Source: a virus | Taxonomy: Duplodnaviria; Caudoviricetes | IMG/VR virus record: IMGVR_UViG_3300028388_002071 | Span: 1-46,961 of that record | DNA length: 46,961 bases | Reading direction: 5' to 3' (one strand) | Part shown: positions 9,608 to 25,840 of the stretch, piece by piece | How positions within the stretch are numbered: the first letter of the stretch is position 1 | Layout of the letters: every line of letters starts with the position of its first letter | Program-made: the position numbers and the translations under genes | The notes under the pieces: model-generated | The model's database searches: none | Told to the model about the DNA's origin: nothing | The model's input: only the letters and a program-made list of their open reading frames with translations

Positions 9608-9698
9608 TTCTATACACGTTCTCGCGACGTGAACAGATTTTCCGATGACCGTTGTCAGATAAATCTGAGGAACTTAACCGAAAGGGTTACTCCGCACA

Positions 9699-9727
9699 TT
9701 GACATTAGTCACGCGGTAAACTTTAAT
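9699..9727 (+). promoter_or_regulatory. Near-consensus sigma70 promoter upstream of the modification-terminase-structural operon
   Basis: TTGACA-17-TTTAAT; degenerate operator TAGTCACGCGGTA (9706-9718) in the spacer. Confidence 0.65.
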
Positions 9728-9750
9728 TCGACCATCAACAGGGTGAACCC

Positions 9751-10053
9751 ATGTCAAAAGCGCAGGAAACCGCCGACGCACACCAGGGCGCGCCAGCCGG
9801 CGCGTTCCGCTCGCGCCTGGACGGCGAAGGCACCGAGGCGCCGGAGTGGGCTCCGATAGCGGAGTGGCCCGAATACGAAATAACCCGGAAAGGCGACATC
9901 CGCCGTCGGGCTGCGGCCAGGGGAACCAGACCGGGCCGGGTCATAAAGCAGACCAAAGGAAATCACGGATACAAGGCGCTCGGCGCCAAGTTCGGCGTGC
10001 CTTGGGGAACGATAAGAAACATTGTCACTCGGAGGACGTGGCTGAATGTCTAG
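9751..10053 (+). pseudogene. NUMOD4/HNH homing endonuclease remnant with the HNH core deleted in frame
   Basis: NUMOD4-like EW.PI.....YEIT..G.IR...GRVIK.....GY joined directly to C-terminal HTH-like A.KFGV...TI.NI....TW; no HRLV or H-N-N motifs. Confidence 0.65.
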
Positions 10054-12391
10054 CAAATTTCAAAGCCGGATCACCGGAGAGGGGAACGAGTCGCCAGAAC
10101 AAATCCTGGCTCACCCCTACAACTTCAGGCGTCACCCGAAGGAACAACTCGACGCCCTCGAAGGCTCCCTCGAAGAAATCGGCTGGATACAGCGCGTCAT
10201 CGTCAACCAGCGCACCGGGCACCTGATCGATGGTCACGCCCGGGTCGAACTGGCGATCCGGCGGGACGAACCCGAAGTGCCCGTCGTCTACGTCGACCTC
10301 AGCGAGAACGAGGAAAAGCTCGCCCTCGCCACCCTCGACCCGATCACCGGCCTCGCCTACCACGACGAAGAACAACTCGCCGCCCTGCTGCGCGAGATCG
10401 AAGTCGAGAACGATGCCGTCGCCGAGTTCCTCGACGAACTCAACCCCGACCGCAACGCCGCCGCCCAGGCCGATGCAGAGCAAGTCAAGTCATCCCTCGC
10501 CGAGCAATTCCTCGTCCCGCCCTTCACCATCCTCGACGCCCGCCAAGGCTACTGGAAGGATCGCAAGCGCCTCTGGCTCAGCCTAGGGATCAAGAGCGAG
10601 AAAGGCCGCGGCCAGGACGGGGAAAAGGCCGGCAAGGGCGGCCTCACCTTAAACCTCAGCTCCCAGCCCGGGCACGTCCTCGACCGCAAGCGCGAGCTAG
10701 AAAACCGGGATGGCAAAAGCTACACCTGGGCCGAATTCGCCGAAGCCTACCCCGAGGAACTTACCCTAGCCGGCGATAGCATCTTCGACCCGGTGCTCAC
10801 TGAGGTCAGCTACCGCTGGTTCTGCCCGCCCGGGGGAAAGATCCTCGACCCCTTCGCCGGCGGGAGCGTCCGCGGCATCGTCGCCGCCATGCTCGGGTTC
10901 AGCTACACCGGCATCGACCTCCGCGCCGAGCAGACTACCGCCAACAAGGCGAACTGGCGCGAAATCAGCGGAACCGGGGGCCTCAGAACGCCCCAACAGC
11001 CCGACGACTACATGCCCGACTTCACCCCCGTCGAGCGCCACGCCGACCACCTCGTCAAGCGCGACGACTTGTTTACCGTCGCCGGCGTCCGCGGAGGCAA
11101 GGTCCGCGCCTGCTGGCGCCTCTCCGAAGGCGCCCCGGGCCTCGTCACCGCCGGCAGCCGGCAAAGCCCCCAGGTCAACATCGTCGCCAACATCGCCGCC
11201 CGCCTCGGCGTCCCTTGCCGCGTCCATACCCCGACCGGCAAGCTCTCCCCCGAGGTCAAGGCCGCCCGAGACCAGGGCGCCGAGATCATCCAGCACAAGC
11301 CCGGATACAACAGCGTCATTATTGCCCGGGCCCGCGAAGACGCCGACGCCCACGGATACCGCGAGATCCCCTTCGGCATGGAATGCGAATACGCCGTCCG
11401 GGCAACCGCCGAGCAGGTACAGAACCTCCCATGGGGAGAGTTCGAGCGCATTGTCGTCCCCGTCGGCAGTGGAATGAACCTTGCCGGCATCCTCACCGGG
11501 CTCAAAGCCGAGGGGCGCGATGTGCCCGTCCTCGGCGTACAGGTGGGGGCCGACCCGACCAAGCGCCTCAACCAATACGCCCCCGAGGGCTGGCGCTCGC
11601 AAGTGACCCTGGTCAAGTCAAAGCTCGACTACCACGACCACGCCCCCAAGACACGCCTCGGCGACCTCCAGCTTGATCCCGTGTACGAGGCCAAGTGCCT
11701 CCCGTTCCTAAAACCCGGGGACCTGCTCTGGTGCGTCGGCATACGCCAGACCGAAATCACCGAGGAACAAGACCTCGGCGGACTCCGCTGGCTCACCGGC
11801 GACAGCCGCAACCTCGACACCCTGCTCGACGACGAACAAGCCGACCTCGTTTTTTCGTGCCCGCCCTACGCTGACCTTGAGGTCTACAGCGACAACCCGG
11901 CCGACATCAGCAACATGGGCTACGACGAGTTCCTCGAAGCCTACCGGGAGATCATCGCCAAAGCCTGCGCGCGCCTGCGCGAGAACCGATTTGCCGTGTT
12001 CGTCGTCGGCGACGTGCGCGACAAGGCCGGCTTCTACCGCAACTTCGTCAGCGACACGATCCAAGCTTTCGAGGACGCCGGCCTCCGGTATTACAACGAA
12101 GCGATCTTCGTCACCCCGACCGGCAGCCTCGCCATGCGCGCCGGCAATTTTTTCCGCGCCAGCCGCAAGCTCGGCAAAGCCCACCAGAACGTCCTCGTCT
12201 TCGCCAAGGGCAGCCCGACCGCCGACGACCCCGAGCAGGCCCTCGCCAACTACCTCGCCGCATGGTTCGGCGAGCACCGCCAGCTACTGCAAGCGCACGA
12301 AAAGCTGCTTGTCTTCGCTAAAGGTGACCCAAAGCTCGCCACCCAGGACGCCGGCACCGCCCTCATCGACGAACCGGAGTTCGTCGAGTGA
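10046..12391 (+). CDS. ParB-like domain + amino-DNA methyltransferase interrupted by a PLP-dependent fold-type-II (ACC deaminase/D-Cys desulfhydrase-like) domain
   Basis: ParB: HP.N.R.H, LIDGHAR; SAM motif I ILDPFAGG (aa ~266); PLP domain TPVE..VKRDDL...GGKVR, VPVGSG..LAG, LDPVYEAK (aa ~326-567); catalytic SCPPY (aa ~604). Confidence 0.85.
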   Translation: MSSKFQSRITGEGNESPEQILAHPYNFRRHPKEQLDALEGSLEEIGWIQRVIVNQRTGHLIDGHARVELAIRRDEPEVPVVYVDLSENEEKLALATLDPITGLAYHDEEQLAALLREIEVENDAVAEFLDELNPDRNAAAQADAEQVKSSLAEQFLVPPFTILDARQGYWKDRKRLWLSLGIKSEKGRGQDGEKAGKGGLTLNLSSQPGHVLDRKRELENRDGKSYTWAEFAEAYPEELTLAGDSIFDPVLTEVSYRWFCPPGGKILDPFAGGSVRGIVAAMLGFSYTGIDLRAEQTTANKANWREISGTGGLRTPQQPDDYMPDFTPVERHADHLVKRDDLFTVAGVRGGKVRACWRLSEGAPGLVTAGSRQSPQVNIVANIAARLGVPCRVHTPTGKLSPEVKAARDQGAEIIQHKPGYNSVIIARAREDADAHGYREIPFGMECEYAVRATAEQVQNLPWGEFERIVVPVGSGMNLAGILTGLKAEGRDVPVLGVQVGADPTKRLNQYAPEGWRSQVTLVKSKLDYHDHAPKTRLGDLQLDPVYEAKCLPFLKPGDLLWCVGIRQTEITEEQDLGGLRWLTGDSRNLDTLLDDEQADLVFSCPPYADLEVYSDNPADISNMGYDEFLEAYREIIAKACARLRENRFAVFVVGDVRDKAGFYRNFVSDTIQAFEDAGLRYYNEAIFVTPTGSLAMRAGNFFRASRKLGKAHQNVLVFAKGSPTADDPEQALANYLAAWFGEHRQLLQAHEKLLVFAKGDPKLATQDAGTALIDEPEFVE

Positions 12392-12813
12392 CCTTCTCCA
12401 CCGACAAGCTCACCGTCGGCGAGTCCGATATCCACGGGCTCGGATGCTTCGCCGCAACCCACATCAGCCCCGGGGAGGTCATCGGGTTTTTCGACGGGTT
12501 CTGGTATCTCTGCCCAATGGGGCCGGTCAAGCCGATCTACCCCGACAACGTCGACAGCCGCTTCTGCATCGACGTGACAACCTTCAAGTTAGGCCCCCGG
12601 ACATTCGCCGTCATCCTAGACCCCCTCGACGGCAGCGAAGGCACCCCACTCGACCGCATCAACCACTCCGACGAACCGAACTGCACCGCGAGAGGCCTCG
12701 CTGTCATCGCCGCGGGGCCGATTCGCCGCGGAACAGAACTGACGATCAACTATGACGACCTCAACTGCACCCCCCTGGTGCTCGGAGGCAGCAAAGGAGC
12801 CGTATATGGGTAG
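12388..12813 (+). CDS. SET-domain methyltransferase
   Basis: S.IHGLGCFA, RINHSDEPNC, I.RGTELTINY; GTGA overlap with the upstream gene. Confidence 0.85.
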   Translation: MTFSTDKLTVGESDIHGLGCFAATHISPGEVIGFFDGFWYLCPMGPVKPIYPDNVDSRFCIDVTTFKLGPRTFAVILDPLDGSEGTPLDRINHSDEPNCTARGLAVIAAGPIRRGTELTINYDDLNCTPLVLGGSKGAVYG

Positions 12814-13243
12814 GTCAGCAACCGGCGGCGAAAAGCTGAACAAGGCCGAAACAAAGAAGCAAGCGGTGATGCTTCGCAAGTCCGGGCGCACCCACCGGCA
12901 GATCGCCGCCCAGCTAAACAAGTCACCGGGCTGGATCTGCAAGCTGCTGAAAGAGGCGGTCGAGGACTACAACAAGGAAACCGCCGCCGAGGTCGAGGAA
13001 CTCCGCGCCTGGGAAGGCCAGCGCCTCGACCAAATGCTCCAGGGCATCTGGCCCCAGGTCATCAACGGGCACCTGGGCGCCATCGACCGCGCCCTCCGCG
13101 TCATACAGGAACGTGCGCGGCTCTATGGGCTCTATGCACCCTCCAAGGTCGCCCCAACCAACCCCGACGGCAGCGCAGAGTTCGGTGGCGGCCTCGCCGC
13201 CCTGCTCCGCGGATACGAGAGCGATGGCGGCAACAGCCATTGA
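12806..13243 (+). CDS. Terminase small subunit (HTH)
   Basis: LRKSGRTHRQIAAQL HTH, AIDRAL...ERARLYGL.AP; AAGGAG RBS; directly before terL. Confidence 0.75.
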   Translation: MGRSATGGEKLNKAETKKQAVMLRKSGRTHRQIAAQLNKSPGWICKLLKEAVEDYNKETAAEVEELRAWEGQRLDQMLQGIWPQVINGHLGAIDRALRVIQERARLYGLYAPSKVAPTNPDGSAEFGGGLAALLRGYESDGGNSH

Positions 13244-14750
13244 CGTGTCCGGGCGCATTGAAGAACAGCGCCAAGCCTACGTCGAACTCCGGCGGCACTG
13301 GCGCGTGGACCCCGAGCGGTATGCCTTCGAGCGCCTCGGACTCCGCGCCACCCACCAGCAACGCGACATATTCAAAGCCATAGCCAGCGAAGGCGCCAAG
13401 GTCAGCGTCCGCTCAGGCCACGGCACCGGCAAGAGCGGCGCCTGCGCCGCGTCTGTGCTTTGGTTCATGGAAACTCGGGACTTCGCCAAGGTGCCGTGCA
13501 CCGCGCCCACCAGCGCCCAGCTACGCGACGTGCTCTGGGCCGAAATCGGCAAGTGGATCCGCGCCGCCGACGCGAAGGCCGCCCGGGAAGGCATACCCAT
13601 GTCGTTCTGGCTCTCGCGCCTGTTCCGACTCACAAGTGATCGCCTCTACGACCCGAGCGCCCGGACGGAATGGTTCGCCGTCGCCCGGACCAGCAGTCGC
13701 GACAACCCGGACGCCCTCCAGGGGTTCCACGCCTCCGACGTGCAAATCAGCGAAGACGGCACCGAGGCAATCCACGCCGACGAAGACAACGCCGGCAGCA
13801 TCATGTTCGTCATCGACGAGGCCAGCGGCGTATTGGATCAGGTCTACGAGGTCGCCGAGGGCGCGCTCAGTTCCCCCGGCAGCCGCCTCCTGATGACAGG
13901 GAACACGACCAAGGCGACAGGCTATTTCGCCATGTCCCACATGAGGAACCGGGCCGAATACACCACCATCCACCTCCGCAGTTCCGAAAGCCCCCTCGTT
14001 GATCCCAGCTACCGCGCCTCCCTGGTTCGCAAGTGGGGCGAGGGGTCGAACGTCGTGCGTGTGCGCGCGGACGGCGATTTCCCCCTGCATGACGACGACG
14101 TGCTGATCGCCTTCGATTGGTGCGAGTCAGCCATCAGCCGCCAGCCCTACCGGGGTGAGAACGCCGAGATCCGCGTCAGCGTCGATCCCGCGAGATTCGG
14201 CGACGACCGCACCGTCCTCTGCGTCCGCCAGGGCCGCAACGTCCTTCACATGGAGGCACACGCGAAACAGGACACCATGGAAACCGTCGGCCAAGCCCTG
14301 GCCCTCCGCGAAAAGTACAGCGCCGCGGGCATCTGGGTCGGGGTCGCCGGCTTCGCAGGCATAGCCGACCGCCTGAAAGAGTTAGGTGAGCACGTCGTGG
14401 AGGTCGTCGAAGGCGCAGGGGCCCCGCGTAAGCGGAAGGACGACGAGTTCCAGCCCTGCCTCATCCGCGACGCCATGTGGGTCGAGGGGCAGCGGTGGCT
14501 AAGGGACGAAGAACCCAGCTTCGCCGCCCTCGACACCGACATGGCCGACGACCTCGCCGGCGAACTCTCCGCCGTCAAGTTCAGCTTCGACAGCAGTGGC
14601 CGGCTCAAGGTCGAGTCGAAGGACGAGATCAAAAAGCCCAAGCGCCTCGGCCGAAGCCCGGACCTCGCCGACGCCCTGCTAATCGGCCTCATGCCCGACC
14701 GCAGCGCGAAGAAATACGCCACCGCGGGCGAGCGCTTATTCCCAAGATGA
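13224..14750 (+). CDS. terL: Terminase large subunit
   Basis: Walker A SGHGTGKS, Walker B MFVIDEA, nuclease VDPARFGDD, RSPDLADAL. Confidence 0.95.
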   Translation: MAATAIDVSGRIEEQRQAYVELRRHWRVDPERYAFERLGLRATHQQRDIFKAIASEGAKVSVRSGHGTGKSGACAASVLWFMETRDFAKVPCTAPTSAQLRDVLWAEIGKWIRAADAKAAREGIPMSFWLSRLFRLTSDRLYDPSARTEWFAVARTSSRDNPDALQGFHASDVQISEDGTEAIHADEDNAGSIMFVIDEASGVLDQVYEVAEGALSSPGSRLLMTGNTTKATGYFAMSHMRNRAEYTTIHLRSSESPLVDPSYRASLVRKWGEGSNVVRVRADGDFPLHDDDVLIAFDWCESAISRQPYRGENAEIRVSVDPARFGDDRTVLCVRQGRNVLHMEAHAKQDTMETVGQALALREKYSAAGIWVGVAGFAGIADRLKELGEHVVEVVEGAGAPRKRKDDEFQPCLIRDAMWVEGQRWLRDEEPSFAALDTDMADDLAGELSAVKFSFDSSGRLKVESKDEIKKPKRLGRSPDLADALLIGLMPDRSAKKYATAGERLFPR

Positions 14751-14974: not shown

Positions 14975-16497
14975 AGTTTCCACGCCTGCTGCCCCGTTTC
15001 GGGTTCTTGGCGCCGCCGCCCCCCGAAGGCAAAAAGCCCACCACCCGCCAGCTTTTCGACGATACCGCCATCGAACAAATGGTCGAGGCTCTCACCGCGA
15101 TCCCCGACCCCGACGAGGTGCTCGACAACGCGGGACTCACCCGCGCCGACCTCCGAAAGATGGAGTACGACGACGAGATCGCCGCAGCCCTGGAAACTCG
15201 CCTCGCCGTCGTCCTAGGCACCCCCTGGCGCCTGGAACCGGGCGAAGGCCAAGAGGTCGATTTCATCTGGGGAGAGATAGAGCCCGTCATGGAGTCCCTA
15301 ATAACCGCGGCATGGTACGCCGTCCCCTACGGGTATAGCGTTGCAGAGGTCATCTACCGCCGCACTGAGGAAGGCCGCATCGGCATCGACCGCGTTGAAG
15401 AACGCCCATTCGAGTGGTTCTCCCCCAGGCCCACCGGCGAGCTTCGCTACTTCCCCGTGGACGGCGGCATTGAAATTGACGTGGACACCCGGTTCAAGTT
15501 CCTGCTGACCCGCCGGCGCTCGACTTACCGCAACCCCTACGGTCAAGCACTGCTCTCCCGCCTCTACGCGCCGTTCTTCCTCCGGCAGGCCGGTTGGCGG
15601 TTTTGGCCTCAGTTCCTTGAGCGGTTCGGCGCCCCCCTGCTGGTCGGCAAGACCACCGGCGACACCAGTGCCCTCGCCAGCGCCCTCACCCAGGCCCTCC
15701 AAAGCGCCGTCGTCGCCGTGGACAGCGAGGACGACGTCGCCGCAGTCGCCAGCACCGGCGACGGGGCCGCCTTCGAGCGGTTTGAAACGGCCGTGACGAA
15801 GCGAATCCAGAAAGTGATCCTGGGGCAGACCCTGACCACCGATGTGGGCAATGTGGGTAGTTATGCCGCCGCCCTGGTGCAAGACGGTGTAAGAACAGAC
15901 CGGAGAAACGCCGATCTCCGCATGGTCACCCGCACCGTGCAGCGCTTGGTCAACGCCATAACCGAACTCAACTGGCCCGGAGCCGAGCCCCCGGAGTTCG
16001 TCATGGAGGACGAAACAGGCCTGCAAACCGAGCGCGCCGAGCGCGACGCGAAACTGGTGCAGTCTGGAGTCGTCAAACTCACCGAAGACTACCTGCTCCG
16101 AGCCTACGATTTCGAGGTCGGCGACTTCGAGCTCCCGCAGCAGCAACCCACCTCCCCTGCGCTGCCCCAGCGCGAGCAAGAGGTCGCCGCCTCGTCCTAT
16201 TTCGCCCGCCCGCCGCATTACCTGTTCGCCAAGGGCGCGCAAGACCGATTCACGCCCGAGCAGGAAGCCGTAGAACAGCTTGCAGACGGCGTTCTAGCCG
16301 AAGCCCCTAGCCCTATATCCCCTGCCGCCCTTGCGCGCGCCGTGCGCGAAGCCAGGAGCCCCGAGGAGCTCGCCTCGGCCCTTGCCGCGGTCTACCGCGG
16401 GAACCAGCCCGATGAATTCCGCGCGATCTTAGAACGGGCCCTGTTCGCCGCCGACCTGATGGGCTATGTCCACAGCGAGGAAACGAATGGCGAATAA
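14971..16497 (+). CDS. Portal protein (Mu gp29/DUF935-like)
   Basis: A.PYGYSV.E, NPYG.ALL, W..FLERFG.P..VGK, I.K.ILGQTLT, GSYA. Confidence 0.9.
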   Translation: MKFPRLLPRFGFLAPPPPEGKKPTTRQLFDDTAIEQMVEALTAIPDPDEVLDNAGLTRADLRKMEYDDEIAAALETRLAVVLGTPWRLEPGEGQEVDFIWGEIEPVMESLITAAWYAVPYGYSVAEVIYRRTEEGRIGIDRVEERPFEWFSPRPTGELRYFPVDGGIEIDVDTRFKFLLTRRRSTYRNPYGQALLSRLYAPFFLRQAGWRFWPQFLERFGAPLLVGKTTGDTSALASALTQALQSAVVAVDSEDDVAAVASTGDGAAFERFETAVTKRIQKVILGQTLTTDVGNVGSYAAALVQDGVRTDRRNADLRMVTRTVQRLVNAITELNWPGAEPPEFVMEDETGLQTERAERDAKLVQSGVVKLTEDYLLRAYDFEVGDFELPQQQPTSPALPQREQEVAASSYFARPPHYLFAKGAQDRFTPEQEAVEQLADGVLAEAPSPISPAALARAVREARSPEELASALAAVYRGNQPDEFRAILERALFAADLMGYVHSEETNGE

Positions 16498-18619
16498 GCC
16501 GCTCAGCCTCAAGTCCGTCCCCTTCGCCGAGGCTCTAGTCGCCGCCCGCAGCCGGGGCGTCGTCCTGCCGGCGGAATACTACGGGGTGATGCAGGGCATC
16601 GAACGCGCGACCGCCTTCAGCGTCGCCAACGTCGCCGCACTGGACCAGCTACAGCAAACGCTAGACAGCCTAAACACTGCCCTCGACCAGGGCATGACCT
16701 TCGACCAGTGGAAGAACGAGGTGCTCGCTGCCCCGGAGGTGCTAGCCCTTCCGCAGCATAGGCTAGACAACATCTTCCGAACCAACCTTCAAGGCGCCTA
16801 CGCCCGGGGCCGCTGCCAGCAGATCGAAGCGAACAAAGAACAGCGCCCGTTCTTGATGTATTCGGCGACCAACGATTCCCGGGTTCGCCCCCACCACCTC
16901 GCCATGGACGGGTTTATCGGCGATGTGGATAGCGAGATATGGAAAAAGTGGATGCCCCCGGCCGGATACAGGTGCCGCTGCACTGTTATCGCCCTCACCG
17001 AAGAACAGGCCGCAGCGCGCAGGACGAAGGATCAGGTCAAGCTCGAAGAAGACACCGAACTGCTCGAAGCCCGCTACGGTGCGCTTATGAATGGCCCCGA
17101 CGACGGCTGGGACTACTCCCCCTGCGACGCGAACCCCGCCGATTGGGTCAAGCAAAAGGCCGTGGGCTACGACCCGGCCCTCGCCGTCGAGGCCCGTGCC
17201 ATCCCCGACGAGGCCGAGATCCTCCGCGACCAGTGGAACCCCGCCAAGTGGGAAAAGATCAGCGGCGCCAAGGGATCGAACAAGGGCGGCGTGTACGAGG
17301 CCCCAGACGGCACCCGGTTCTATGTGAAGCAATACGCCGACCCGGACCAAGCCCGCACCGAGTTCGCCACGAACAAGATCAACAACCTCATGGGGATCGA
17401 CACCCCCGAGAGCTACCTGCTCGACATGAACGGCGATCTCGTCATTGCCAACAAGTGGCGCGACGACTTCACCGCAGCCACCGTCGGCAAGCTCCAACAG
17501 TCCAAGTACAAGGTCGATATCCGCCGCGTCTACCAAGCCGCGGCCCTCACGAAAAACTGGGACGTGGTGGGCCTCGACTTCGACAACCTCGTCATCAACG
17601 GCAAGGGCCGCCTCGCCATCGTCGATAGCGGAGGCAGCCTCAAATTCCGCGCCCAGGGCGGCCCGAAGCCATTCGAGGCCGGCCCCATCGAAGAACTCGA
17701 CTCCCTGCTCAGCTACAGCTATAACCGGCAGGCCGCGGAGGTCTTCGGCAAGTACACGAAGGAGCAACTGCTCGTCGGCGTCCAGAACAACCTCGGCGAG
17801 ATTACCAAGACCAAGCTCGCCAACATCTTCCACGAAGCCGGTTTTGCCCCCGCTGAGGCAAAGTACCTCACCGACACCACCTGGGCGCGCGTGAAGTGGA
17901 TGCGCGAACTGGGCGCCCGGAGGAAGACCCGCACCCGGACAAAGAACCCCGTCCAGGCGACCGTCTTCCGCGATACCCCAGAGATCACGCCCGACGCAGC
18001 ATTCAAGCGCGCAAAGACAATCAGCCGGAGCACCGCCGAGGCTGGCTACAGAAAGGCCCGCCGCCTCGGCATGAGCGACGCCCAGGCAAAGGACGCCGGC
18101 ACCCTCACTGTCTACACCGGGGGCTCCTACCGTCGCATCAATAGGGTTCTCCGCGGAAAGGACAGTCCGAGCCCGTCGGTCTTGAACTACTCGAACGCGG
18201 CTGTGAGCGCTATGTCCCGGTTCGAGAAATACACCGGGGCAGTCACGCGAGGCCTAGATCTCTTCCCGGACGGGCAAGATGATTGGCTGAAGCGGATGAC
18301 AGCCGCAAAAGCGAAGGGCGAAGCGATAGAGTTCAAGTCGTTCGTCTCAACCGATACCAAGGGCGGCTGGGAAGCGGACACTAAGATTCACATCAACGCC
18401 ACCGGGTTTCAGGGCGTCGATGTGGATCGGTTCAGTGCGAACCAAGGCGAGAAAGAGATCCTATTCCCCCGGGGCGCCCGCTTTAAGCTCGACCGGATCG
18501 AATTCGGCGAGCCCATGTGGGACGGGAGAAGGCCGATGCACGTCTACCTCGAAGAAGTCCCCGAGGCATTCGAAGGGAAGGCCGTCACGTTCAGTCTTCC
18601 GGATCAAAGCCCCCAATAA
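16487..18619 (+). CDS. MuF/SPP1 gp7-type head protein with C-terminal kinase-like and ADP-ribosyltransferase domains
   Basis: MuF: IFRTN...AY.RGR, DSRVRP.H, PP.GYRCRC; kinase-like GSNKGG.Y...YVK...E, NWD....DN, IVD.GG; ART YTG..Y..IN..LR, TRG, FVST, EKEILF. Confidence 0.88.
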   Translation: MANKPLSLKSVPFAEALVAARSRGVVLPAEYYGVMQGIERATAFSVANVAALDQLQQTLDSLNTALDQGMTFDQWKNEVLAAPEVLALPQHRLDNIFRTNLQGAYARGRCQQIEANKEQRPFLMYSATNDSRVRPHHLAMDGFIGDVDSEIWKKWMPPAGYRCRCTVIALTEEQAAARRTKDQVKLEEDTELLEARYGALMNGPDDGWDYSPCDANPADWVKQKAVGYDPALAVEARAIPDEAEILRDQWNPAKWEKISGAKGSNKGGVYEAPDGTRFYVKQYADPDQARTEFATNKINNLMGIDTPESYLLDMNGDLVIANKWRDDFTAATVGKLQQSKYKVDIRRVYQAAALTKNWDVVGLDFDNLVINGKGRLAIVDSGGSLKFRAQGGPKPFEAGPIEELDSLLSYSYNRQAAEVFGKYTKEQLLVGVQNNLGEITKTKLANIFHEAGFAPAEAKYLTDTTWARVKWMRELGARRKTRTRTKNPVQATVFRDTPEITPDAAFKRAKTISRSTAEAGYRKARRLGMSDAQAKDAGTLTVYTGGSYRRINRVLRGKDSPSPSVLNYSNAAVSAMSRFEKYTGAVTRGLDLFPDGQDDWLKRMTAAKAKGEAIEFKSFVSTDTKGGWEADTKIHINATGFQGVDVDRFSANQGEKEILFPRGARFKLDRIEFGEPMWDGRRPMHVYLEEVPEAFEGKAVTFSLPDQSPQ

Positions 18620-23684: not shown

Positions 23685-23894
23685 ATGCAGGAAGTGGAAC
23701 TTAACGACGACGAACGGACCAAGTGCGAAGTCTGGACCCGGGTGATGGGCTACCACCGTCCCGTGGACCAGTGGAACAAAGGCAAACAATCCGAACACGC
23801 CGAACGGCTCTACTTCCGCGAGGAACACGCCGTCGGGATTAAGGAGCGTGACTCATGGCGGCAAGAGTCTCCCCAGAACGCGCCCAGAAACTAG
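23685..23894 (+). CDS. Stand-alone NrdD C-terminal (glycyl-radical) domain
   Basis: RTKCEVWTRVMGYHRPVDQWNKGKQSEHAER matches the class III RNR C-terminal RVxGY loop; AAGGAG RBS. Confidence 0.85.
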   Translation: MQEVELNDDERTKCEVWTRVMGYHRPVDQWNKGKQSEHAERLYFREEHAVGIKERDSWRQESPQNAPRN

Positions 23895-24853
23895 CCGCCG
23901 CTTGGCTCTCGGGCAAGTACACGAAAATGTCGGAGGTCTTCGACGCCGTGGGCATTTCCACTTCAACGCGGAACCAACACGCGATCCGCCGCGAGGTGGA
24001 GCGCATGCTCGGTATTTCGCTGCCCCGGCTCAACTTCAACGGCGTCCCGAACAGCCCCGCGGCCGTTAACCTCCCGCACCGCATCGTACAGCACCGCGAG
24101 GAAAAGCCCTACACCATCGTCGTCTTCAGCGACGCCCATTTCTGGCCCGGGGACCGCACCCCCGCCTATTCGATCCTGCTCCAAGTCATTCGGGACGTGA
24201 AGCCCGACATCATCCTCGACAACGGCGACAGCTTCGACGGTAGCAGCATCAGCCGCTTCACCCCGAGTATTTGGGAAGACCTGCCGACCCTAAAGGACGA
24301 ACTCGCCGCGGTACGCGAGCGCTGCGACGAGATCGTCGAGGTCGCCCCGAAAAAGGCCAAGCTCTACCGCAACCTCGGCAATCACGACATTCGTCTAGAG
24401 GCGCGCCTCGCCGACGTGGCGCCCCAGCTTAAAGGCATGCCCGGGACGACCATCGACGAGATCCTCGGCCCCAAGTGGACGCACCAGTTCGCCATGTGCT
24501 TCAACGACGCCCTCGTCGTCAAGCACCGCATCCGCGGCGGCATCCACGCCCGCCGCAACAACGCCATCGCCGGCATGGTCAGCATCTGCACCGGGCACAC
24601 GCACCGCCTGGGCATCACCTATGTCGACAGCTACGCCGGCCGGATCTACAGCATGGAGACGGGCACCCTCTCCCAGGTGGACAGCCCCGCCTTCAGCTAT
24701 CTCGAAGACAACCCTCGGGACTGGCAATCCGGGTTCGGCATCTGGCACATCGACCCCGACGGCCCTGGCGGCAAGCCCCTACTCCACCCCGAGGTCGTCG
24801 AGGTCAAGCTCGACGGAACCGCATTCTACGGGGGCAAGAGGTACACGCCATGA
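23855..24853 (+). CDS. Calcineurin-like metallophosphoesterase
   Basis: SDAH, NGDSFD, GNHD, KH, GHTH motifs. Confidence 0.88.
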   Translation: MAARVSPERAQKLAAAWLSGKYTKMSEVFDAVGISTSTRNQHAIRREVERMLGISLPRLNFNGVPNSPAAVNLPHRIVQHREEKPYTIVVFSDAHFWPGDRTPAYSILLQVIRDVKPDIILDNGDSFDGSSISRFTPSIWEDLPTLKDELAAVRERCDEIVEVAPKKAKLYRNLGNHDIRLEARLADVAPQLKGMPGTTIDEILGPKWTHQFAMCFNDALVVKHRIRGGIHARRNNAIAGMVSICTGHTHRLGITYVDSYAGRIYSMETGTLSQVDSPAFSYLEDNPRDWQSGFGIWHIDPDGPGGKPLLHPEVVEVKLDGTAFYGGKRYTP

Positions 24854-25032
24854 GCACCGTCGAAATAGAGATGATGAACGAGTTGCTCGACCGGATCGTC
24901 GCCCTGGAGGCCCGCGGAGCCGACCAAGAGCGCCGCATTCGCTGGCTTGAGGACCGCGTTCAGCACCCTCGCAAGTACCAGCATCACAGTGACTACTGCG
25001 ACGTCGATTTCGCGCCTGGTGGTTCCGAATGA
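24850..25032 (+). CDS. Hypothetical 60-aa coiled-coil protein
   Basis: ATGA coupling on both sides. Confidence 0.55.
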   Translation: MSTVEIEMMNELLDRIVALEARGADQERRIRWLEDRVQHPRKYQHHSDYCDVDFAPGGSE

Positions 25033-25145
25033 AAAAGCTCGGCGACCTATACCTCGCCGCCCTGCGGAGCGCAGTCGCAGTCCTGGCGATAGCGATAGCC
25101 ACCATCGTTGGCTTCGCGTGGGGCATGGGGTACTTGATGCGATGA
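25029..25145 (+). CDS. 38-aa membrane peptide (MKKLGDLYLAALRSAVAVLAIAIATIVGFAWGMGYLMR), not in ORF track
   Basis: ATGA coupling on both sides; one TM helix. Confidence 0.55.
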   Translation: MKKLGDLYLAALRSAVAVLAIAIATIVGFAWGMGYLMR

Positions 25146-25840
25146 GAGTCATCGACCGCCCAGGGATCATCATCGAAGACCGGCACATTACCGGCCCGGG
25201 CCCCCTGCTGCTCGTCAACTGCCACGGGGCGAAGATCCGCCGCGTCACCGTGGACACGCCGCGGGAAGGCATTTTCCTCCGGGACTGCTACGGGGTCGAG
25301 ATTGAAGACGTGGACGTGCGAGCGTCGAGAACCGGGCTCTACTGCTCGCGCACCCGAGACGTGACCGTCCGCGGATCGACTTTCTTCGACTGCGGCAACG
25401 GCGGGCTCGCATGGTGGAAGCGCGAGGCCATCGCCCTCGACGGCGCCCAGGACACCCTGGTCGAGGACGTGAAGGTCATCGAATGCGACGTGGGCATCGC
25501 CACCTATAGCAACTGCGGCGAGCACGGGAGCGCCCCCAGGCAGCCAGCGACCCGCAACGAAATCCGTCACTGCACGTTCGACAATGGGCACATCGGCATC
25601 TGGTTCGGCTCCCGGCAGTGGCGCGACATGCGCGGCTGGGACTGCACCCGAGCCGGCGGCTGGGAGTGGGACGTGATGACCCCGAAACAGCCGTTCCCGA
25701 AGTGGCTAAAGCCGCGGTTCCCCTATTTTGGCGTCAGGTCTTGGATTGTGCCCGATGTGGTCTACGGGAACACCGAGACGGGGAACGAGTTCGGCGGGGT
25801 GAGCTACCCCGTGATCGACAACCAACTGAGGTCGAAATGA
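25142..25840 (+). CDS. Right-handed parallel beta-helix (pectate-lyase-like) protein
   Basis: Repeating GI.L..C....I.D, GLY......TVRGSTF, AIALDG...T.VE, N.IR.CTF rungs. Confidence 0.7.
   Translation: MRVIDRPGIIIEDRHITGPGPLLLVNCHGAKIRRVTVDTPREGIFLRDCYGVEIEDVDVRASRTGLYCSRTRDVTVRGSTFFDCGNGGLAWWKREAIALDGAQDTLVEDVKVIECDVGIATYSNCGEHGSAPRQPATRNEIRHCTFDNGHIGIWFGSRQWRDMRGWDCTRAGGWEWDVMTPKQPFPKWLKPRFPYFGVRSWIVPDVVYGNTETGNEFGGVSYPVIDNQLRSK

Follow-up and report, generated by a model that had tools for sequence, protein, structure and literature searches.

A phage enzyme cassette upstream of terminase likely places an undescribed amino-alkyl mark, rather than a plain methyl group, on DNA

The 46,961-bp phage record IMGVR_UViG_3300028388_002071 (the whole of this stretch is referred to as the window) is complete, with direct terminal repeats, and encodes shortly before its terminase genes a 781-aa protein in which a pyridoxal phosphate (PLP) enzyme domain is nested within a ParB-linked DNA amino-methyltransferase (MTase) fold bearing an unusual CPPY motif. 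A SET-domain gene follows immediately. From comparisons at the level of sequence and predicted structure, we propose that the likely product of this cassette is DNA bearing a previously undescribed amino-alkyl mark, as opposed to simple methylation. In the proposed mechanism, what the CPPY domain transfers from S-adenosylmethionine (SAM) would be the aminocarboxypropyl arm and not the methyl; the acceptor would be a DNA base, with N4 of cytosine and N6 of adenine as candidates. The nested PLP domain is predicted to decarboxylate this arm, leaving aminopropyl, and the SET protein, which is an optional component, would N-methylate the free amine. We give the core of this proposal, aminocarboxypropyl transfer from SAM by the CPPY enzyme followed by PLP-dependent decarboxylation, a probability of roughly 40%. 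The sequences directly show the architecture, the motif-IV Cys, the kinship of the PLP domain with decarboxylases of DNA-attached amino acids, and the exchange of the nested domain among relatives. DNA as the substrate is suggested by the ParB fusion, the genomic position and the closest solved relatives, and we infer the transferred group, the order of the steps and the SET substrate. The elements of the cassette are as follows.

10046..12391, plus strand: ParB::CPPY amino-MTase-fold protein with inserted PLP domain, 781 aa (open reading frame (ORF) without internal stop; domain profiles; AlphaFold2 model)
10097..10432, plus strand: ParB/Srx-like N-terminal domain, residues 18-129 (phrog_620, E 1.5e-19, and related PHROGs)
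10493..10960, plus strand: N-terminal half of the MTase, approximately residues 150-305, with the SAM-binding motif I, DPFAGGSVR, at 10847-10873 (R276 invariant)
11000..11749, plus strand: inserted PLP fold-type-II domain, approximately residues 319-568, with the predicted Schiff-base Lys352 at 11099-11101 (PF00291; hhalign)
11777..12220, plus strand: C-terminal half of the MTase, residues 578-725, with motif IV, CPPY, and Cys605 at 11858-11860 (profiles; alignment)
12388..12813, plus strand: stand-alone SET-domain protein, 141 aa, of a small subfamily (PF00856, E 2.2e-10)

A preceding sequence-only reading of the window had described a ParB/MTase/PLP protein, and the phrog_620, PALP and N6_N4_Mtase profiles and the intact ORF confirmed it. 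In the 781-aa protein, the Pfam matches to PALP (E 3.3e-16) and N6_N4_Mtase (PF01555, E 5.9e-9) were both above cut-off; the ParB domain had no Pfam match and was recognized by PHROG profiles only. The AlphaFold2 model had a mean predicted local distance difference test score (pLDDT) of 87.8 and a predicted template modeling score (pTM) of 0.70. Both parts of the proposed MTase::PLP fusion are present, with the refinement that the PLP domain interrupts the MTase, after motif I (D268-R276) and ahead of motif IV (C605-Y608).

The MTase has a Rossmann fold with motifs I and IV, but its motif IV places Cys at the catalytic position instead of the Asp, Asn or Ser of canonical amino-MTases, such that the (D/N/S)PP(Y/F) motif is not found. 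Of 203 distinct ORFs from the loci that matched a motif-IV profile, 195 had Cys at this position and the other 8 had Ser. Motif I read GSVR in 184 profile-matched ORFs, every other variant occurring once or twice. Across 80 aligned homologues, K352 and R276 were invariant and C605 was at least 90% conserved. Solved DNA amino-MTases align with the window's enzyme in the motif I and IV regions but read FAG(S/T)GTT and SPPY. Compared with the alignable beta-class enzymes (PDB 2zie, 8s9n, 1boo (M.PvuII) and 6pbd (CcrM)), the window's enzyme is permuted (motif I before IV), carries a 250-residue enzyme insert, and has Arg in motif I and Cys at the catalytic position. The predicted methionyl pocket differs from that of the solved enzymes on both sides (CPPY and FAGGSVR), changes that may remodel it. 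We estimate that approximately 3000 stored IMG/VR stretches carry members of this CPPY family. Separately, the motif of the last MTase strand is duplicated in the window (12182-12326; HQNVLVFAKG / HEKLLVFAKG), as seen in five stored proteins, including the window's, plus that of locus L037.

The inserted domain is related to enzymes of phage DNA hypermodification, as the sequence-only reading had held. By hhalign, its profile matched ViI gp226 (98.6%, E 7e-16) and M6 gp52 (96.1%) with the Schiff-base lysines in register, and the window matches PHROGs 3650 (E 2.9e-36) and 7093 (E 7.8e-14), which derive from these two proteins. According to the available text of PMC8989533, ViI gp226 and M6 gp52 decarboxylate amino-acid:base conjugates on DNA and require a free primary amine. 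In a PLP tree, the clade of the window stood apart from both characterized enzymes on long branches flagged as unsure by the program, so inheritance of decarboxylase activity is uncertain and we can only propose it. With residues 300-580 as the query, 4815 candidates (429-1367 aa) yielded 507 matching proteins; among the 120 of these matches that were listed, all had GGK(V/A)R, and the PLP domain lay between motifs I and IV in 97 and at the C terminus in 16, with 7 partial. As an observation apart, two T4-like contigs (L161:1001-3113 and L176:1-375) carry further fold-type-II PLP genes, similar to those in the part of the tree that holds M6 gp52, within unexplained clusters of enzymes.

The genes that supply amino-acid:DNA adducts in M6 and ViI were not found in the complete genome. 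There, tblastn with M6 gp51, gp53, gp54, gp55 and gp58 and with Montesquieu aGPT-Pplase2 gave a best E of 0.33, in agreement with the earlier statement that 5-hydroxymethyluracil (hmU) pathway genes are absent. Of the components of an M6/ViI-type system, the window has a PLP decarboxylase homologue with its catalytic Lys, and lacks an hmU source, a 5-hmU DNA kinase and an aGPT-Pplase2. A non-methyl mark is favored because a methyl group would offer relatives of these PLP enzymes no substrate, and because the genome has neither hmU nor amino-acid:DNA transferase genes.

To what extent the PLP domain is tied to the CPPY enzyme can be judged from 101 loci picked by the PLP domain alone, which form 82 clusters at 90% identity. 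A CPPY MTase was present in 75 of these clusters, with the PLP domain inserted in 52, C-terminal in 4 and encoded by a separate gene in 19, bearing out the predicted PLP-MTase coupling. Members of a second PLP clade occupy the identical MTase site or lie adjacent. Among cultured phages, Pam4 has the PLP domain inserted in the MTase, AlanGrant and Vincenzo have it as an adjacent gene, vB_EliS-R6L (R6L) and ZS04 carry an insert from the second clade, and phiFL3A and B054 have the CPPY MTase alone. The R6L fusion is named a CcrM-like methylase in the available part of PMC5463345, which gives no modification data. When the PLP label was mapped onto an MTase tree built from 60 chosen rows, it required 12 changes, at least 5 of them forced by strong branches, which indicates that partners were repeatedly gained and lost on one enzyme family. 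The link from PLP to CPPY is tight and that from CPPY to PLP is loose. The remaining 7 of the 82 clusters lacked a CPPY MTase, and two of the seven (L092/L102 and L093) adjoin pairs of PF09924 aminoacyl-transferase-like genes, which would be another way of supplying an amino acid to the PLP enzyme. These arrangements (L092:3441-6843 and L093:5974-9460), each a PLP gene of the window's clade with two PF09924 genes, possibly represent a separate amino-acid-appending system.

The site of the PLP insertion is a swappable slot. The closest SET homologue in IMG/VR belongs to L037, a phage syntenic with the window and its nearest relative found, the two MTases sharing 81% identity across 210 columns. 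This MTase is split at the window's PLP insertion point, with a 325-aa PP-loop protein (SGGKDS, CGxCxKC) in place of the PLP domain, and is followed, in the same order as in the window, by SET, a helix-turn-helix (HTH) gene and the large terminase subunit. Scanning 26 of 64 parts for the clade of this QueC-like protein gave 15 loci, 12 of them full-length. Of these 12, 10 had a CPPY MTase; the family is represented in L315 by an SPPY member and in L311 by a distant one. In L308-L310 (4296-6266), the QueC-like domain is inserted in frame at the same MTase site. Two cultured phages, ZRG1 (L206:3527-5372) and P2559S (L207:3512-5153), have a SAM decarboxylase gene overlapping a ParB-CPPY MTase immediately ahead of the terminase region, an association that counts as one event because their MTases are sisters. 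In L313, a SAM synthetase abuts the MTase. The most natural substrate for the partner enzymes is the carboxyl or the amine of an amino acid. Two unrelated kinds of decarboxylase and an adenylating ATPase are ill-suited to a methyl mark, whereas all of them would suit an adduct ending in an alpha-amino acid, a group that SAM can supply as aminocarboxypropyl; such an adduct is the central point of our proposal. Non-methyl transfer of this kind had been raised in the sequence-only reading, and in light of the PLP kinship, the swapped partners and the absent hmU route it seems the best interpretation.

Certain loci of this kind are recorded here in their own right. L037:3413-6860, L112-L116 and L308-L310 combine CPPY with a QueC-like ATPase (as split halves, adjacent or in frame), with SET in two lineages, and are a candidate diphthamide-like set. 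In L005:3921-6681 (Staphylococcus phage Alsa_1, Herelleviridae), a PLP gene lies together with an SPPY methylase and a fragmented QueC-like gene. The ORF behind the L315 QueC-like gene was considered PALP-like and set aside, having no profile match.

A broader form of the proposal, in which the CPPY family comprises DNA aminocarboxypropyl transferases with a plug-in slot, where PLP or SAM decarboxylases would give aminopropyl, QueC-like enzymes would amidate the carboxyl and SET would N-methylate the amine up to trimethylammonium, we regard as unlikely.

The SET gene begins within the stop of the upstream ORF, as previously noted, the two sharing GTGA at 12388-12391, and its PF00856 match is accompanied by intact GxG, RxINHS (RINHS), PN and ELxxxY motifs. 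Its subfamily is tiny, with 5 proteins at E<=1e-12 among 917 candidates. Its placement is not random: in all three lineages with visible context (the window, L037 and L112-L116), it lies directly behind a CPPY module and before terminase, two of the three having a QueC-like partner and no PLP domain. No SET homologue was found in GenBank phages at E 0.1. A metagenome scan with the subfamily (22 of 64 parts) returned distant SETs only, and in this generic control set a CPPY MTase was present at none of 85 loci, 41 of which were at least 4 kb. L077 carries an unrelated SET that likewise follows a CPPY module before terminase and is the sole SET in the 99 whole records searched; counting L077, independent SET-CPPY associations number about three. 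Since decarboxylation and amidation both leave the amine free, an optional N-methylase would suit either a PLP or a QueC-like partner.

The conserved MTase-PLP-SET pathway envisaged earlier did not hold up. SET was absent from the first 36 loci, and occurred in 1 of the 82 PLP clusters (L077, of another subfamily), in 1 of 50 whole records with a PLP module (longer contigs chosen from the PLP-selected set) and none of the 13 near-complete ones, in none of 49 CPPY-selected whole records, and in 2 of the 12 full-length QueC-like loci, representing one lineage. The counts of 1/82 and 1/50 rule out a fixed triad, and this lack of SET conservation beside homologues of the fusion is one half of the outcome that the sequence-only reading had named as refuting it. 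The SET common to the window and L037 may reflect simple inheritance, because the two are close kin. Characterized SET domains methylate protein lysines. SET is thus not a standing third step, and an optional add-on is plausible; if the core mechanism is correct, the odds that it acts on the amine of the cassette are about even, and a protein-lysine target for SET alone is as likely.

Two other SET neighborhoods were noted. In L077:2545-6254, a ParB-CPPY MTase is followed by a protein that joins a PLP domain to one of 290 aa (its frame apparently overlaps the end of the MTase) and then by the SET of the other subfamily; an amidoligase reading of the 290-aa domain, suggested by motif resemblance, was dropped for want of any Pfam or PHROGs match. 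The SET beside the PLP gene in L161 was judged incidental, as L176 also has a SET in that position, close to genes of the clamp-loader region.

Several findings, together with the SET counts, weigh against the aminocarboxypropyl mechanism. Among 79 loci selected by an uninterrupted CPPY profile, a PLP gene was nearby in 4 and the other 75 had no partner; SAM decarboxylase, QueC-like and SET genes were near none of the 79. Of 10 further cultured-phage regions, 7 had no recognizable partner. The CPPY MTase thus usually works alone, although this set undercounts insertions because its selection favored uninterrupted MTases. A SAM decarboxylase (PF02675) was found in none of the 49 other CPPY-selected whole records. 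The QueC label is weak for the L037 protein (E 6e-4, below cut-off) and firm for L033 only. Finally, fold-type-II PLP enzymes led the Foldseek comparison of the AlphaFold2 model with the PDB, and the closest solved relatives, D-cysteine desulfhydrase and 1-aminocyclopropane-1-carboxylate (ACC) deaminase, are eliminases.

The frequency of partnerless loci would fit an ordinary N4-cytosine or N6-adenine DNA methylase, with the PLP, QueC-like and SET genes being passengers of a hot spot before terminase or having other targets. Varied genes do accumulate in pre-terminase regions, and the best structural and profile relatives are DNA amino-methylases. However, two PLP clades and a QueC-like domain are inserted in frame at the same site with catalytic residues intact, these partners are nearly restricted to the CPPY family (75/82 for PLP, 10/12 for QueC-like), and motif IV carries Cys; we consider an ordinary methylase rather unlikely. 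The same aminopropyl product could also arise in reverse order, if the PLP domain decarboxylated free SAM and the CPPY enzyme then transferred aminopropyl from decarboxylated SAM in the manner of spermidine synthase. The nesting of the PLP domain beside the SAM-binding motif would permit channeling, true SAM decarboxylases stand in for PLP in ZRG1 and P2559S, and partnerless enzymes could conceivably draw on decarboxylated SAM of the host. This order is quite unlikely, given that the characterized PLP relatives act on DNA-bound adducts (PMC8989533, available text), that QueC-like partners would require a retained carboxyl and that the two SAM-decarboxylase cases are a single event.

A reading with a target other than DNA (RNA, a small amine, or a protein of the virion or the host) modified by diphthamide-like chemistry, or with SET alone as an unrelated protein-lysine methyltransferase, is in our estimate a shade less probable again. 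Aminocarboxypropyl transfer, N-methylation and PP-loop amidation occur in protein and tRNA chemistry, the SET matches in the PDB are histone methyltransferases, generic phage SET genes were found without modification genes, and some CPPY genes sit among replication genes without ParB. Set against this are the ParB fusion, the pre-terminase position, the DNA-MTase ancestry, the action of the PLP relatives on DNA and the fact that the window's SET subfamily was met only behind CPPY modules. The desulfhydrases among the top fold matches also recall sulfur chemistry, in which the PLP domain would free cysteine sulfur and the motif-IV Cys or a PP-loop partner would pass it to DNA; the PLP desulfurase of Dnd systems is likewise accompanied by a PP-loop ATPase and a ParB protein (PMC10853773, available text). 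Yet the window's cassette has no PP-loop gene, PLP partners and PP-loop partners for the most part take each other's place, and a SAM decarboxylase partner would be inexplicable. In addition, DndA is a cysteine desulfurase of a different PLP fold, and we regard this chemistry as highly improbable.

With the aminocarboxypropyl mechanism as the preferred reading, the role of the mark can be considered. Several 6-bp palindromes are strongly depleted across the whole genome (observed/expected: ACCGGT 0/33, CTCGAG 0/29, CTGCAG 0/19, CGATCG 4/44.5 and GTCGAC 22/94). A dense protective coat is disfavored because the genome avoids many such palindromes, which also counts against our proposal. The earlier suggestion that the modification shields packaged DNA from restriction is accordingly doubtful as blanket protection; the mark is probably sparse and sequence-specific, directed against one restriction system or serving packaging. 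ParB partners are described as activators of phage DNA-modifying enzymes (PMC13229309, available text). The sequences ATCGAG/CTCGAT are also avoided in the window (positions 1-46961; 2 versus 29 expected).

The genes following the cassette are those of a terminase region.

12806..13243, plus strand: HTH protein, probable terminase small subunit from its position (phrog_645, E 2.7e-23; HTH_23 and HTH_29 below cut-off)
13251..14750, plus strand: terminase large subunit, start codon uncertain (phrog_2, E 2.8e-34)

The SET gene overlaps the next ATG (12806) by 8 nt, as the sequence-only reading had it; the small-subunit identity given there to the downstream gene is a presumption from position and HTH, its best profile, phrog_645, being labelled 'Rnase E'. 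By Pfam scan, the window also encodes an integrase, RecT and YqaJ genes and a Mu-like portal. Further observations are a Mu gpF-like head protein (16466-18619) whose C-terminal domain resembles ADP-ribosyltransferases (PF03496, E 8.5e-10), two proteins encoded among the tail genes (23855-25840), one a calcineurin-like phosphoesterase and the other a beta-helix protein, and a weak M6 gp65 match at 9692-9838 (E 4e-4).

Annotation as a phage DNA methylase is conventionally taken to mean methylation. If our proposal is true, the annotation of thousands of phage genes is wrong, charged DNA marks of a new class exist, and a primary-amine handle made on DNA from ordinary SAM would be a useful labelling tool; the plug-in-slot version, if true, would mean diphthamide-like chemistry on DNA and the first DNA-acting SET enzyme, for which we know of no precedent. 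Cultured phages carry the variants with PLP (Pam4, vB_EliS-R6L and Vincenzo), with SAM decarboxylase (ZRG1 and P2559S) and alone (phiFL3A and B054).

In a full-text literature search, with most subscription papers beyond its reach, we found no published account of a ParB-MTase-PLP fusion, of the CPPY motif or of aminocarboxypropyl or aminopropyl DNA of such a kind. The diphthamide and betaine-lipid (BtaA/BtaB) pathways use aminocarboxypropyl transfer and N-methylation, and diphthamide also PP-loop ATPase amidation, but through other enzyme families and on targets other than DNA, so the likeness is one of analogy only. ParB-fold::N6_N4 fusions at ParB-terminase loci (PMC12704722, PMC4738411; phrog_498) have the same architecture and pre-terminase position; the available text of these papers mentions no PLP insertion or SET partner, and they are presumed to be plain methylases. 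With ViI gp226 and M6 gp52 (Lee et al., PMC8989533, available text), the window shares a homologous fold-type-II domain with an aligned Schiff-base lysine, but at approximately 25% identity, nested in a CPPY MTase and in a genome without hmU synthase, kinase or aGPT-Pplase. In logic, CmoX/CmoY is the nearest precedent, in which a phage DNA-MTase fold installs a non-methyl handle: in the CmoA-CmoX-CmoY system of Synechococcus phage S-B43, this SAM-derived handle is then tailored by an ATP-dependent enzyme, much as our proposal would have it for the window, and ParB genes are often near (PMC12783734, available text). CmoX is a C5 enzyme (SPPC) using carboxy-SAM, whereas the window has an amino-MTase profile and fold with CPPY, joined to PLP and SET, the partners in its relatives being SAM decarboxylase and QueC-like; CmoA was not noticed among the 43 + 14 window ORFs scanned with Pfam, a scan that included no search aimed at it. 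What the window adds is the exchange of PLP for QueC in a near-identical MTase and the link to SET. The module is real, widespread and uncharacterized, lies outside the thymidine route, the Cmo system and the canonical amino-methylases, and appears to work like a handle-plus-tailoring hypermodification system.

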